This document shows, piece after piece, positions 40,663 through 50,772 of a stretch of DNA of 64,000 nt. Source of the DNA: Escherichia phage vB_EcoM-S1P5QW. A model generated the notes under the pieces. That model did not search any database. It was not told where the DNA came from and saw only the letters and a program-made list of their open reading frames with translations. Location: sequence record OL956808.1; one strand, given 5' to 3'. The position numbers were made by a program, and so were the translations under genes. Each line of letters starts with the position of its first letter. The stretch's first letter is position 1.

Positions 40663-40896
40663 ATGAAAACTTTCAAAGAGTTTATCGCTGAATCTTCTGA
40701 TGTAAAAGTTGAGTTTATTTACACCGGCAAGAAAGATAAAATGGGTGAAATGCCTCATGGAGTTCTTCGTGATGCATTAGATAATTTCGGTCAACTCGCC
40801 GCAGAAGATTACGGTGATAAAATTGTTGTTACTGGTCCTGCTGCAGTTATTGAAAAATGGGCAGCAGAAAATAAATCAATTTTTCGTAAAAAATAA
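40663..40896 (+). CDS. ipI: internal protein I-like, N-terminal capsid targeting sequence
   Basis: Track ORF starts at TTG inside the promoter; ATG at 40663 gives MKTFKEFIAE-SSDV..., matching the T4 IP capsid targeting sequence and gp21 cleavage context; adjacent to 57B as T4 ipI; start could be the ATG at 40651. Confidence 0.7.
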   Translation: MKTFKEFIAESSDVKVEFIYTGKKDKMGEMPHGVLRDALDNFGQLAAEDYGDKIVVTGPAAVIEKWAAENKSIFRKK

Positions 40897-42152: not shown

Positions 42153-42198
42153 ATTTATGTCTCGTCGTGAGACGCTCAGTTCTTTATTAGGGACTGAT

Positions 42199-42807
42199 AT
42201 GCATTTTTATCTTTATAAAATAACAAATAAAATTAATAATAAAATTTATATTGGTGTGCATTCTACCGAAAATTTAGATGATGGATATATGGGTTCTGGT
42301 AAATTATTAAAAAGAGCCCAAGATAAATATGGTATAGAAAATTTTTCTAAAGAAATATTAGAGTATTTTGATGATAAAGAATCTATGCTTGAAGCCGAGA
42401 AAAATATTGTCACAGAAGAGTTTTTAAATAGACCAGATGTGTATAATTTAAAACTTGGAGGTGAAGGTGGATGGGATCATATAAATAATTATCCTATGAC
42501 AGATCAGCAACGCGAATTAATTTCATTGGGTGTTAAAAAGGCACATTCTAACGGAAAATTAAAAGGATGGTCTTCAAATGGATTAATGAAAAATGGCTTT
42601 GCTGGTAAAACTCATTCTCAAGAAGCTAAACGTAAAATAGCAAAAGCAAACGAAGCAAAAGTTTCTGCGAATGAAAGAAAAAGAAGAATAGAAATTTCTA
42701 AATTATATGATTTTTCTAAGCGGGGTGAATTATCTAAATATGCTAAGCATATTGGCGTAAGTCATACTCAAGCAAAAAGAATTCTAAATCAAATTAACAA
42801 TATATAA
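42199..42807 (+). CDS. segB: GIY-YIG homing endonuclease, SegB-like
   Basis: GIY-YIG signature FYLYKITNKINNKIYIGVH...YMGSG; track ORF (42157) begins just after tRNA-Gly, ATG at 42199 has an RBS; inside the tRNA cluster as T4 segB. Confidence 0.75.
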   Translation: MHFYLYKITNKINNKIYIGVHSTENLDDGYMGSGKLLKRAQDKYGIENFSKEILEYFDDKESMLEAEKNIVTEEFLNRPDVYNLKLGGEGGWDHINNYPMTDQQRELISLGVKKAHSNGKLKGWSSNGLMKNGFAGKTHSQEAKRKIAKANEAKVSANERKRRIEISKLYDFSKRGELSKYAKHIGVSHTQAKRILNQINNI

Positions 42808-43505: not shown

Positions 43506-43850
43506 AACAAGAAGCCGGGTCGCTACCGGTAAGTCGTCGGACTGATGTTCCCTGGGTAAGGACTGGCATTAACAAATCTTTACGATCGGTTAATGCCCCC
43601 TTACATCACAGCAGAAACGGCGCACCGAATTATCGATTCGAGGAAATATCTTTGCCGTAAGCCGAGTAGCGTTTTTGACGGAACGTTCGGATATGGTCGA
43701 GATATGGCCTTTTAAAATATTAAGTAGCGTCAACTGCTTAATAACCGGGTTCGAATCCCGGCGTTTCGTACAAACACTTGCCTTAGCAGGTGGAACCCCG
43801 ACAAGGTTGCCGCAAGGCTTAGCCCCGACCGAAAGGTTGGGGCTTTTTAG
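43506..43850 (+). ncRNA. stable small RNA region (T4 RNA C/D-like) ending at an intrinsic terminator
   Basis: 345 nt without a credible ORF right after tRNA-Arg; tRNA-like T-arm ccgggttcgaatcccgg at 43745-43763; ends with hairpin plus T-run 43822-43850; T4 has two stable RNAs here (recalled). Confidence 0.4.
43822..43850 (+). terminator. intrinsic terminator (copy 1)
   Basis: agccccgaccgaaaggttggggc + TTTTT; near-identical copy at 44377. Confidence 0.7.
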
Positions 43851-43894
43851 TATAAATAAGTATATTAAAACCACGAATTAAAACAGGAAATAAG

Positions 43895-44368
43895 ATGAAA
43901 TCATATGCTCAATTTTTAAATGAAGCGGTGTTAAATGAAGCATCTAGCACCGAAATTCAAGCCGTTGCAAAAGCTGCCATTGCCGCGGGTAAATATTCCT
44001 ATAAAGATGCTTCTGATGAGTCACGATTCCAATTTGCTCGCGATATGAAAGCGGAAGGATTTACAGGGAATGCAGTTAGTATGGCCTGGAAAAGTCTAGT
44101 TGCTACTGGAGCTGCTTTTGCAAAGGCTTCGGGTAAACCTGCTCCTAAAGCAGATCCTAAAGTCACACAAGAGAAAAATATTGTTAAAGGAATTATCTCC
44201 AAATATGAAGCTATCCTTAAAGAGCTTTTAGTAATCAAAACTGAAGGCCAAAAACTGGCTCGTGCTTATAGTTTCAAAGATAACCCACATGCTCACTCTC
44301 TTGAGTATGTTGAAGACATCCAAAAAATTATTAAAGACCGCATTTGGTCTGCTAAACAAATCAAATAA
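43895..44368 (+). CDS. candidate packaged internal protein with CTS-like N-terminus
   Basis: 157 aa; N-terminus MKSYAQFLNE-A resembles T4 CTS MKTYQEFIAE; Ala/Lys-rich; flanked by near-identical terminators. Confidence 0.55.
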   Translation: MKSYAQFLNEAVLNEASSTEIQAVAKAAIAAGKYSYKDASDESRFQFARDMKAEGFTGNAVSMAWKSLVATGAAFAKASGKPAPKADPKVTQEKNIVKGIISKYEAILKELLVIKTEGQKLARAYSFKDNPHAHSLEYVEDIQKIIKDRIWSAKQIK

Positions 44369-47363: not shown

Positions 47364-47848
47364 TTTTAAAAACTCGCTGGTATGATTTAGATGATGGGGA
47401 TGATGGCATTTCAGTTGATAGAGTTGACTGGAATGGCTGTTCCGAAGATATGAAAAATTTGCTGATTAGGGAGTTTAGAATGGGATATCAACCAGTTAAG
47501 CCATCTACTGCAACAGATGATAAATTCGTGTGTATTCATAATGGTCGCGCTAAATTAACGAACACTGATTGGTTCACAGATAAGATTATGATTCTGTGGT
47601 ATATTATTAGTTTTCCTGTGACATCATTTGTATTTTGCTTCTTTGGAGAAAGTCCAGTAGACAGAACGGGAGATTGGATTATTTTAACCATACTTGTTAA
47701 TATTTTTACAGCAGCAATATTATCTGGGATATGGTACACGTTCATTGAAATGCCATGGCGTTTACGTAGGCAGCAAAAGATTTTTGATGAAAAGAAATAT
47801 ACTCAAAATTTAAATAATTTTATCACCGAATGCAGGAAATTAAAATGA
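47360..47848 (+). CDS. membrane protein, FVxECRK-motif paralog
   Basis: 162 aa; hydrophobic segments; C-terminus NNFITECRKLK; ATGA overlap. Confidence 0.5.
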   Translation: MILKTRWYDLDDGDDGISVDRVDWNGCSEDMKNLLIREFRMGYQPVKPSTATDDKFVCIHNGRAKLTNTDWFTDKIMILWYIISFPVTSFVFCFFGESPVDRTGDWIILTILVNIFTAAILSGIWYTFIEMPWRLRRQQKIFDEKKYTQNLNNFITECRKLK

Positions 47849-48285
47849 AAACATTATCAGCTGGTATTATCTTTATGACAGAAGATAAAGATTTATTCAT
47901 GGGACGGGTTACTGGTTCTCGTAAGCCTGGAATGATGGCACATCGCTGGGATATTCCAAAAGGCCGTGTAGAAAATTCTGATTTGAGCGCACTAGATGCA
48001 GCACGAAGAGAATGCTTAGAAGAGACCGGTTTTAGCAATTATAATCCAGACCTTCTAGAAGACCTAGGTGTATTTAAATATTCTAGTAATAAAGACTTAC
48101 AGCTGTTTTATTATACGATTCCAGTAGAGCATGAGATGTTTAGAAATTGCCATTGCGAGTCTTATTTTGAAAATAAAGATGGTGTTATGATTCCAGAGAT
48201 GGATGCTTTTGCTCTTATTCCTCGTACTCAGTGGCAATATGTGATGGGTCCTTCACTTTACCGAATAATGAACAGCCTCTTTTAA
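47845..48285 (+). CDS. nudE: Nudix hydrolase NudE (e.1)
   Basis: Nudix box GRVENSDLSALDAARRECLEETGF; ATG at 47845 overlaps upstream stop (ATGA) and has aggaaa RBS; track start 47830 is an alternative. Confidence 0.8.
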   Translation: MKTLSAGIIFMTEDKDLFMGRVTGSRKPGMMAHRWDIPKGRVENSDLSALDAARRECLEETGFSNYNPDLLEDLGVFKYSSNKDLQLFYYTIPVEHEMFRNCHCESYFENKDGVMIPEMDAFALIPRTQWQYVMGPSLYRIMNSLF

Positions 48286-48816
<531 letters not shown>

Positions 48817-48820
48817 AGTT

Positions 48821-48850
48821 ATTTACTTTCTCCTAGAATTGTGATAGTAT
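48821..48850 (+). promoter_or_regulatory. candidate early promoter upstream of the IPIII-like gene
   Basis: -35-like ATTTAC and -10 gtgaTAGTAT. Confidence 0.4.
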
Positions 48851-48910
48851 ATTCACAGTTACTTGAAGAGATAAATTATTAATTAAAATATTTACATTTA
48901 AAGGATACAC

Positions 48911-49384
48911 ATGAAAACATATCAAGAATTTATTACTGAAGCAGCTATTAATTCTCAAATTATTGCTGAATCTTTTACTGATCTTTTGAAATTTAAAAAA
49001 GGACAGAAAATCACTGCTGTACTGGATGATGGTACAGAAGTTGAGATGGATGTACAGGGATATAATTATGCAGTAGATGGAAAACTGTATAATAAATCTC
49101 ATGCTAAATTTGATTCATTTGACGACTTTGTTAATACAGTTGAAGATGAAAAAACTCGTCGATCCATTGCAACAGGTGATGCTAAGGTTCTTATGGCACA
49201 TGGTCATGAACGTATTCGCGCTAAACAGAATAAAATGGGTGAAGATAATTTTGCATTAGTTGGTTATCAATCTGGTAAACAAACTTATGGCTATCAACGT
49301 ACTGCTACCATGTATAACAAAAATGGTAAAATTGCCTTTGTGAATAGTAAAGGTTCTATTCAGTACGTTAAATCGTTCAAATAA
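48911..49384 (+). CDS. internal protein (IPIII-like) with capsid targeting sequence
   Basis: 157 aa; N-terminus MKTYQEFITE-AA matches T4 CTS; adjacent to e as T4 ipIII; aagga RBS. Confidence 0.6.
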   Translation: MKTYQEFITEAAINSQIIAESFTDLLKFKKGQKITAVLDDGTEVEMDVQGYNYAVDGKLYNKSHAKFDSFDDFVNTVEDEKTRRSIATGDAKVLMAHGHERIRAKQNKMGEDNFALVGYQSGKQTYGYQRTATMYNKNGKIAFVNSKGSIQYVKSFK

Positions 49385-49537
49385 GCAAATAAGAAATATG
49401 GGAACAACCTGGACCTCATGATTCTGTGAGGGATTCCCGCCAACCTGTAATAAGGTCGAGCCCAAGTGCGGTAATGGGTAAATACAGAAATGGACAATTC
49501 ATGCGCCACGGAATGGCCCAAACCTAGAGAGAATAAA

Positions 49538-50077
49538 ATGAGAACATTTTTAACTGGTCCTTATCTATCCCTGATGAATGCTTTTACACACCATTCTGAT
49601 GCTAGAGTAGAAGAAATTTGTAAAAACGAATATATCCCGCCATTTGAAGAATTACTTAAACAGTATTGCACACTTCGACTAGATGGTGGACGTCAATCCG
49701 GTAAATCAATTGCTGTGACTAACTTTGCTGCTAATTGGTTGTATGATGGCGGAACAGTTATCGTTCTTTCTAATACTTCAGCTTACGCTAAAATTTCTGC
49801 AAATAACATTAAAAAGGAATTTTCGCGTTATTCTAATGATGATATACGTTTTCGTTTATTTACTGATTCTGTGCGCAGTTTTATTGGTAATAAAGGAAGC
49901 AAGTTCAGAGGTTTATCGCTTTCGCGAATTTTGTATATAATTGATGAGCCTGTCAAATCTCCTGATATGGATAAGATTTATAGTGTCCATATTGAGACTG
50001 TACACTACTGCTGTAATAGTAAATGTTGTATTGGTGGTATTACTCGTCCACAGTTTTTCGTAATCGGAATGCAATGA
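49538..50077 (+). CDS. small P-loop NTPase-like protein with Cys-rich C-terminus
   Basis: Track ORF (49490) over-extended; ATG at 49538 with RBS gives 179 aa; Walker A GGRQSGKS, Walker B-like ILYIIDEP, C-terminal HYCCNSKCC. Confidence 0.55.
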   Translation: MRTFLTGPYLSLMNAFTHHSDARVEEICKNEYIPPFEELLKQYCTLRLDGGRQSGKSIAVTNFAANWLYDGGTVIVLSNTSAYAKISANNIKKEFSRYSNDDIRFRLFTDSVRSFIGNKGSKFRGLSLSRILYIIDEPVKSPDMDKIYSVHIETVHYCCNSKCCIGGITRPQFFVIGMQ

Positions 50078-50403
50078 TGACAGACACTCAGCTTTTCGAA
50101 TATCTTTATTTTTCGCCAAAAACTATTAAAAATAAATTGGTGAATCATTTTGAAATTTTGGCAAATAACAACGTCTTGAGCGAATTTTATCCTAAGCAAT
50201 ACAAATTACAAAAAGGCGTATTCAAAGGATGCAGAGTTTTGTGTACTGCTCCTAATGCACGGCTAATGAATAAAATTCCATATTTTACCATGGAATTTAT
50301 TGATGGTCCTTTTAAAGGACTAATCACCCAAAGTTTAATGGCATATGATTCTGAGCCATTTTTAATTAAAGAACAATCTTGGATAAATTTATTTTCTAAT
50401 TGA
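50074..50403 (+). CDS. hypothetical protein
   Basis: Track ORF starts at non-ATG 50023; ATG at 50074 overlaps upstream stop (ATGA), 109 aa. Confidence 0.45.
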   Translation: MMTDTQLFEYLYFSPKTIKNKLVNHFEILANNNVLSEFYPKQYKLQKGVFKGCRVLCTAPNARLMNKIPYFTMEFIDGPFKGLITQSLMAYDSEPFLIKEQSWINLFSN

Positions 50404-50409
50404 GGTTAT

Positions 50410-50772
50410 ATGAAAGCATATCAAATTCTTGAAGGCACACATAAAGGTACTATTTATTTTGAAGATGGTATTCAAGCACGAATTATTGTCTCTAAAACCT
50501 TTAAAGAGGACTCTTTTGTAGACCCAGAAATTTTCTACGGTTTGCATGCCCGTGAAATTGAAATTGAGCCACAGCCTACAGTTAAAATTGAAGGTGGTCA
50601 ACACCTGAACGTTAACGTTCTGCGTCGTGAAACTCTGGAAGATGCAGTTAAGCATCCGGAAAAATATCCGCAGCTGACCATCCGTGTATCCGGTTATGCA
50701 GTTCGCTTTAACTCTCTGACTCCGGAACAGCAGCGCGACGTTATCGCTCGTACCTTTACTGAGAGTCTGTAA
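50410..50772 (+). CDS. autonomous glycyl radical cofactor, GrcA/YfiD-like
   Basis: 120 aa; C-terminal 60 aa contain glycyl-radical motif RVSGYAVRF and look identical to recalled E. coli GrcA C-terminus; 3' half has host-like GC-rich codons. Confidence 0.85.

Follow-up and report, generated by a model that had tools for sequence, protein, structure and literature searches.

Internal protein Ip4 and the variable locus between genes e and vs.8 in Escherichia phage vB_EcoM-S1P5QW

A short gene stands directly behind the lysozyme gene of Escherichia phage vB_EcoM-S1P5QW, at the place held by ipIII in T4, and its product starts almost exactly like a T4 internal protein. Does the gene encode a diverged IPIII, or has the locus been filled by a different protein, and what might that protein do? 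We analyzed a stretch of 64,000 nucleotides of this phage (OL956808.1; hereafter the window), which is a segment of a Tequatrovirus genome. The gene in question is the open reading frame (ORF) at 48911-49384 (+), encoding 157 aa from an ATG start with the N-terminus MKTYQEFITEAAINS. We found it to be the gene for Ip4, an alternative internal protein of the T-even phages and a member of the Ip4/DUF7412 family.

Identity of the Ip4 gene

The precursors of T4 IPIII and IPII both start with MKTYQEFIAE, and the Ip4 leader, MKTYQEFITE, is identical at nine of the ten residues (A9T). It retains all the positions mapped in T4, Y4 and F7 for targeting and I8 and E10 for processing, and M1, K2, F7 and E10 are invariant across 14 members of the Ip4 family. 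The earlier note was thus right to read MKTYQEFITE-AAINS as a near-exact T4 capsid-targeting sequence. It was equally right in placing the gene in the ipIII position after e, 94 nt downstream of that gene, in finding the product shorter than T4 IPIII (157 versus 193 aa), and in counting it as the third leader-bearing protein, the window containing three such ORFs (the others at 40663-40896 and 43895-44368). Its description of the protein as IPIII-like did not survive alignment without the leader, which revealed no similarity to IPIII and left Ip4/DUF7412 as the family.

The assignment to that family rests on full-length matches above the curated cut-off. Residues 1-157 fall on profile positions 1-158 of Pfam DUF7412 (PF24183; E 5.7e-96, 319.4 bits against a cut-off of 27), and the protein matches PHROG 3155 (phrog_3155), "internal virion protein," with E 6e-102. 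The top and only significant structural match in the BFVD viral structure library was UniProt Q38388, "Ip4 [Enterobacteria phage K3]," at 99% identity. A search of PDB sequences with the Ip4 family profile found no solved structure at E ≤ 0.5. The syntenic gene is labelled Ip4 in AR1, RB14, RB51 and Shfl2, and ipIV in GiZh. Compared with the known Ip4 of T-even phages, that of the window differs in nothing of substance: phages K3, T2, RB14, RB32, RB51, AR1, Shfl2, GiZh and Salmonella S16 have the same protein, of the same length, at the same locus after e and with the leader. Annotations of many genomes already record this gene under this name and at this locus, as well as the exchange relative to T4.

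Using residues 11-157 as a tblastn query, we obtained matches in 470 phage records. Together with the full-length DUF7412 match, these argue that Ip4 is not a chance ORF. In 291 of the records the identity is at least 99%, with phage T2 at 100%, and approximately 160 records at 60-80% identity come from T4-like phages of Salmonella (S16, STML-198), Klebsiella and Raoultella. The family is nevertheless narrow. In a collection of 5.8 billion proteins it forms 14 clusters, to all of which the window's Ip4 is 61-99% identical, and a single residue (N136S) separates it from the cluster representative P0001. When 1.8 billion representatives were searched exhaustively with the profile, only eight matches emerged, three of them distant full-length Ip4 homologs, whose N-termini (MNFEQFLNES, MNFKDFLNES) resemble diverged leaders. 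The single genomic context examined for these, a contig of 2.8 kb, was uninformative.

Much about the gene resembles T4 IPIII, a precursor of 193 aa that likewise occupies the slot directly after e, is preceded by the same kind of upstream block, carries a near-identical leader with an L/I-x-E site, and is small and basic. Position, leader and upstream regulatory block would all fit an ortholog of IPIII, or of IPII, with ordinary divergence. We consider this reading highly improbable, since nothing beyond the leader supports it. With the leader removed, BLASTP returned E values of at least 9 against T4 IPIII and of 0.2-0.6 against T4 IPII, and we rejected both as orthologs; tblastn of T4 IPIII against the window recovered only the leader, 13-19 residues. 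Among the orthologs proper of IPIII in phages of Escherichia, Yersinia and Klebsiella, identity is still 87-96%, and the DNA flanking Ip4 is 94-96% identical to T4, whereas the segment between the flanks has no DNA match. Ip4 and IPIII belong to different PHROG families, DUF7412 is matched by Ip4 only, and both proteins are present in Klebsiella phage KP17. The absence of mature similarity and the presence of Ip4 beside ipIII in that phage indicate separate families that have the targeting leader alone in common. In addition to its dissimilar mature sequence, Ip4 differs from IPIII in being 36 residues shorter and in its probable second site of cleavage, at E20.

The remaining T4 internal proteins gave the same picture, and none of the tests for homology of mature Ip4 to the IPIII, IPII or IPI* families was positive. 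A pairwise match to the IPI precursor at E 3e-4 was rejected as evidence of remote homology to IPI* because it came from the propeptide, the mature parts alone giving E = 10. T4 IPI (IPI* being the inhibitor of GmrSD-CT596) is leader-bearing like Ip4, and its 19-residue propeptide ending in ITE↓A resembles the two-step propeptide predicted for Ip4, but it lies at another locus (after 57B) and its mature part is unrelated. IPII, the inhibitor of GmrSD-ECOR21/BrxU, is similar to Ip4 in its leader and upstream block, but unrelated in its mature part, and its gene is absent from the window.

The cassette between e and vs.8

The gene order in T4 is e - ipIII - ipII - denV - vs.8 - vs.7 - vs.6, whereas the window, AR1 and T2 have e - Ip4 - vs.8 - vs.7 - vs.6. 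With e on one side and vs.8 on the other, Ip4 is syntenic with T4 ipIII-ipII, as expected of a gene in one of the two polymorphic internal-protein loci, which follow e and 57B. A blastn comparison with the T4 locus found homology at 48250-48942 (93.9%) and 49396-50100 (96.1%) only, and the intervening cassette has no counterpart in T4 (Table 1). The left junction coincides with the end of the common leader codons, where homology to T4 DNA stops at 48942, and the right junction falls 12 nt after the Ip4 stop codon, corresponding to a point just after the T4 denV stop. Searching with T4 IPIII, IPII and DenV, tblastn found ipIII, ipII and denV to be absent from all 64 kb of the window, the leader-only match of IPIII aside. 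Ip4 replaces ipIII-ipII-denV of T4 in a clean cassette swap within an otherwise colinear genome.

Table 1. Features of the Ip4 locus and its neighbors, in window coordinates
Feature	Position	Strand	Basis or remark
Nudix hydrolase gene	47830-48285		upstream of lysozyme gene e
Late-promoter boxes (two), TATAAATA	48288-48295 and 48301-48308	+	exact T4 consensus, just upstream of e
Lysozyme gene e, 164 aa	48322-48816	+	Pfam Phage_lysozyme; named e at the syntenic place in AR1 and T4; left anchor of the variable locus
e-Ip4 intergenic block	48817-48910	+	conserved with the T4 e-ipIII intergenic region by alignment
Shine-Dalgarno AAGGA	48901-48905	+	before the Ip4 ORF
Capsid-targeting sequence, codons 1-10 (MKTYQEFITE)	48911-48940	+	predicted to be cut by gp21 after E10 (I-T-E↓A)
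Probable second propeptide segment, codons 11-20 (AAINSQIIAE)	48941-48970	+	ends in second gp21-type site, I-A-E↓S
Swapped cassette, 453 nt without T4 counterpart	48943-49395		replaces 1441 nt of T4 (mature ipIII, ipII and denV); blastn, alignments
Folded mature Ip4 domain (residues 21-157) and stop	48971-49384	+	alpha/beta; DUF7412/phrog_3155; AF2 model
Downstream homology block, right-hand cassette edge	49396-49535 (to about 49540)	+	~96% identical to T4 DNA after the denV stop
vs.8 ortholog, right anchor	49490-50077	+	tblastn with T4 vs.8: 97.8% aa identity over 180 aa; AR1 annotation
vs.7	50023-50403	+	after vs.8
vs.6/GrcA	50410-50772	+	Pfam Gly_radical

These results bear on two further claims of the earlier note. 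That the internal-protein repertoire differs from T4 agrees with the absence of ipII and denV from the 64-kb window, and the alignment with T4 IPIII and IPII excluded an ordinary IPIII ortholog with ipII and denV just outside the reading. The claim that unrelated genes follow in place of ipII and denV was correct insofar as those two are not the next genes, but the neighbors are the T4 orthologs vs.8, vs.7 and vs.6; since these three follow denV in T4 as well, the genes after Ip4 are its normal T4 neighbors.

The arrangement is no peculiarity of vB_EcoM-S1P5QW, being the standard one of phages of the T2/AR1/RB14 type. The 2.7 kb around the Ip4 ORF share 98.6% identity with Shigella phage Sf22 and 98.3% with phage AR1, and 425 phage records match at least 80% of this segment. 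The genome of AR1 was read over its stretches 1-50000 and 56038-73500. Repoila et al. (in 1994) reportedly described a two-locus polymorphism of internal proteins with a conserved leader and flanking blocks of homology. The figure of "at least 10" Ips is credited to Repoila et al. 1994 by PMC12373910.

Two other phages have different arrangements of the same genes. In phage GiZh (L004 2045-2944), the order is e - denV - Ip4 with 9 nt between denV and Ip4; in phages of the GiZh type, a denV approximately 78% identical to that of T4 is inserted ~30 nt upstream of the Ip4 start, so that denV is a separate module of the same hotspot. Klebsiella phage KP17 (L005 2950-4083) carries an endolysin gene, an Ip4 homolog and ipIII side by side. 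Taken together, the two arrangements indicate that Ip4, ipIII and denV move independently of each other.

The left edge of the cassette may explain how such exchanges occur. A part of the upstream region together with the leader codons (window 48830-48942) also matches the upstream region and leader of T4 ipII, with 79.6% DNA identity over 113 nt. As the block before Ip4 thus also precedes T4 ipII, regulatory region and leader form a portable unit common to the ip genes, at which recombination can take place. At the DNA level, we found no repeat of this promoter and leader block upstream of the other two leader-bearing ORFs of the window.

Expression of Ip4 is likely to depend on the two exact late-promoter boxes at 48288 and 48301: late transcripts reading through e into Ip4 likely originate there, a start that we infer from the boxes themselves. 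Our scan detected no terminator-like site between e and Ip4 and no exact late promoter directly upstream of Ip4, the one near-consensus box nearer to Ip4 than those two being TATAAAAA at 48802. The intergenic block contains a weak sigma-70-like element that is conserved with T4, TTTACT at 48822-48827 and, after a 17-nt spacer, TG-n-TAGTAT at 48842-48850; read from the letters only, this promoter-like element agrees with the consensus at 8 of 12 positions and lies under the scan threshold.

T4 annotates the block at the right edge of the cassette (49396-49535) as the 5' end, the first 40 codons, of vs.8. In the window, a GTG stands in place of the T4 ATG and the frame is interrupted by an indel of 8 nt, the conserved vs.8 frame starting at ATG 49490 or at ATG 49538 (MRTFLTGP). 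Such conservation of the DNA without preservation of the frame suggests a non-coding element or a recombination block. The GC content of the block is slightly raised (0.43). A search for structured RNA gave no Rfam match in the block at or near the gathering score (two matches with E ≤ 1 fall outside it) and a folding z-score of +0.64.

Processing and possible role of Ip4

In T4, the first 10 residues of IPIII are sufficient to bring a protein into the prohead core, with residues 4 and 7 important for targeting and residues 8 and 10 for processing; cleavage by the prohead protease gp21 follows the Glu of L/I-x-E and removes internal-protein propeptides of 10-19 residues; and the head packages ~300 copies of each internal protein, which leave it with the DNA and pass into the host (PMC9026906). 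Ip4 carries such a gp21 site at I8-T9-E10↓A and a second, conserved one at I18-A19-E20↓S. Within the 14 family members, E20 never varies and its P3 position is occupied by I, L or M throughout, and in the distant homologs L-N-E↓S stands immediately ahead of the conserved domain. In the AlphaFold (AF2) model (pLDDT 78.8, pTM 0.73), residues 10-20 have pLDDT below 50 and the protein is folded from residue 21. T4 IPI loses 19 residues, ending in ITE↓A. From the invariance of E10 and E20, the hydrophobic P3, the disorder of residues 10-20 and the parallel with IPI, cleavage by gp21 is predicted after E10 and probably also after E20. Depending on the cut, at E10 or at E20, the mature protein would have a mass of 16.5 or 15.5 kDa and a pI of 9.1-9.3, with 9.3 for the 15.5-kDa form, and would be basic like IPII and IPIII.

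By analogy with T4, we consider it likely that Ip4 is a head-targeted, injected internal protein, directed most probably against a type IV restriction system. The precursor would be made late and, through its first 10 residues, directed to the scaffolding core of the prohead, where gp21 would cut it at I-T-E↓A, after E10, and probably a second time at I-A-E↓S, after E20. The head would retain the resulting basic protein of 15.5-16.5 kDa, in large numbers if it resembles the T4 internal proteins, until it is injected with the phage DNA. In the cell, it would most probably neutralize one specific modification-dependent (type IV) system that cuts glucosyl-hydroxymethylcytosine DNA. In the literature, we found no account of function for Ip4 or DUF7412 and no virion proteomics or injection report for Ip4.

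The proposed role draws on the internal proteins that have been matched with targets. Each of the T4 proteins Ip1 (IPI), Ip2 (IPII) and Ip3 (IPIII) is the inhibitor of a GmrSD type IV enzyme of its own (Silas et al. 2025, PMC12373910), and all proteins of both Ip loci have been proposed to target variants of the GmrSD family (PMC12373910). The leader-bearing protein Bas37_0260, encoded at the ipI locus of Bas37, inhibits McrBC (bioRxiv 10.1101/2025.11.20.689424). By its description, the latter is an alternative internal protein of a T4 relative with the N-terminal signal as its only link to IPI-III, just as Ip4, although at a different locus, and it supports the general model of what internal-protein cassettes do. 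Four internal proteins now have targets and all four targets are type IV restriction enzymes, from which Ip4, too, would most probably disarm a modification-dependent nuclease.

Two results count against a simple answer. When "ip4-10" were assayed against a panel of active GmrSD variants, no reproducible inhibition was observed (PMC12373910, Supplementary Fig. 9), the correspondence to our Ip4 being by name only; neither the protein string nor the DNA string of Ip4 was found in the supplements of Silas et al. Moreover, T2, which lacks ip2 and ip3 as does T6, is still restricted by GmrSD-ECOR17, the target of IPIII, and by GmrSD-ECOR21 (PMC12373910), despite having the exact same Ip4. The GmrSD family is very diverse, however, and only a fraction of it was tested (PMC12373910).

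These observations leave room for other roles, among them a mainly structural or morphogenetic one, in which Ip4 is a basic core protein aiding scaffold assembly or DNA condensation where IPIII is absent. T4 IPIII mutants assemble heads at approximately half the rate and have a burst of ~40% of normal, and internal proteins copurify with the scaffold protein gp22 and, at low salt, bind DNA (PMC9026906). Where IPIII is missing, Ip4 takes its slot and, like IPIII, is basic, its near-identity in 291 records exceeds what one might expect of a protein in an arms race, and "ip4," matched to our protein by name, was without inhibition on the GmrSD panel (PMC12373910). IPIII itself is a GmrSD inhibitor (PMC12373910), however, so that a morphogenetic effect is compatible with an anti-defense role; the adjacency of Ip4 and IPIII in Klebsiella Jiaodavirus phages speaks against simple substitution, and the locus behaves as a hotspot of shuffled accessory genes. 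On balance, we regard a mainly structural role as unlikely. We are similarly doubtful that Ip4 is an injected inhibitor of a defense other than type IV, for instance a glycosylase acting on hmC-DNA or an abortive-infection system. The lack of a GmrSD target for "ip4-10" (PMC12373910; again Ip4 by name) would fit such a role, as would a fold unlike that of any known inhibitor, and other modification-directed defenses against T-even phages, DNA glycosylases included, have reportedly been described in recent work. The weight of precedent is on the other side, with type IV restriction enzymes as the targets in four of four cases, and the partial coverage of the very diverse GmrSD family weakens the argument from the panel.

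Ip4 may possibly inhibit a defense so far without a matched phage countermeasure, one candidate being a type IV variant or another modification-sensing defense that recognizes T2-type DNA. If this is true, the choice between Ip4 and ipIII/ipII at the locus would track the sugar-modification type of the phage.

T-even phages exchange injected anti-restriction proteins at their internal-protein loci, which are hotspots of such swaps. Ip4 ranks with the most frequent alternatives, T2 being among its 470 phage records, and is a reasonable candidate for functional work; the question of its target is general to these ~470 records and not particular to the window.

In phage AR1, whose Ip4 locus has 98% identity to that of the window, the glucosyltransferase encoded is a T6-type beta-glucosyl-HMC-alpha-glucosyltransferase and not the T4 beta-gt (L007 22356-23198, outside the window).

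Other leader-bearing reading frames and the tRNA region

The tRNA cluster of the window differs from that of T4, containing tRNAs for Met, Tyr, Asn and His and none for Ile or Pro. It is split between tRNA-Gly and tRNA-Ser by an ORF for a GIY-YIG homing endonuclease (42157-42807, +; phrog_314; "segD" in AR1), whereas segB of T4 lies at a different point of the cluster. At 43678-43771 (+), ARAGORN calls a 94-nt "tRNA-Lys(ttt)," and the Rfam tRNA model scores there under its gathering score. AR1 has no tRNA annotated at the corresponding place, T4 has the stable RNAs rnaC and rnaD there, and the element, which ends in a hairpin before the late promoter at 43851, is probably not a normal tRNA.

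The late promoter just mentioned, an exact TATAAATA at 43851-43858 just past the hairpin and a T-run, precedes one of the two further leader-bearing ORFs. This ORF (43895-44368, +) encodes 157 aa starting with MKSYAQFLNEAVLNEA, a leader-like N-terminus, and has two gp21-type sites of the form L-N-E↓A and a basic mature part (pI ~9.5). It lies between the tRNA cluster and e.8, outside both classical internal-protein loci, and T4 annotates no gene between rnaC and e.8. No Pfam family covers it, and its PHROG is phrog_2280, "unknown function." Matches were found in 511 phage records, and among the annotated matches listed all are called "hypothetical protein" or "Phage protein" and none internal protein. 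Judged by these features of its sequence, the ORF may encode an unrecognized internal protein at a third locus.

The other ORF (40663-40896, +) encodes 77 aa starting with MKTFKEFIAE, directly after 57B in the ipI locus, and belongs to phrog_8111, "internal virion protein." It shares with T4 IPI the first 7-14 residues only, which indicates that the ipI slot, too, holds a non-T4 cassette.
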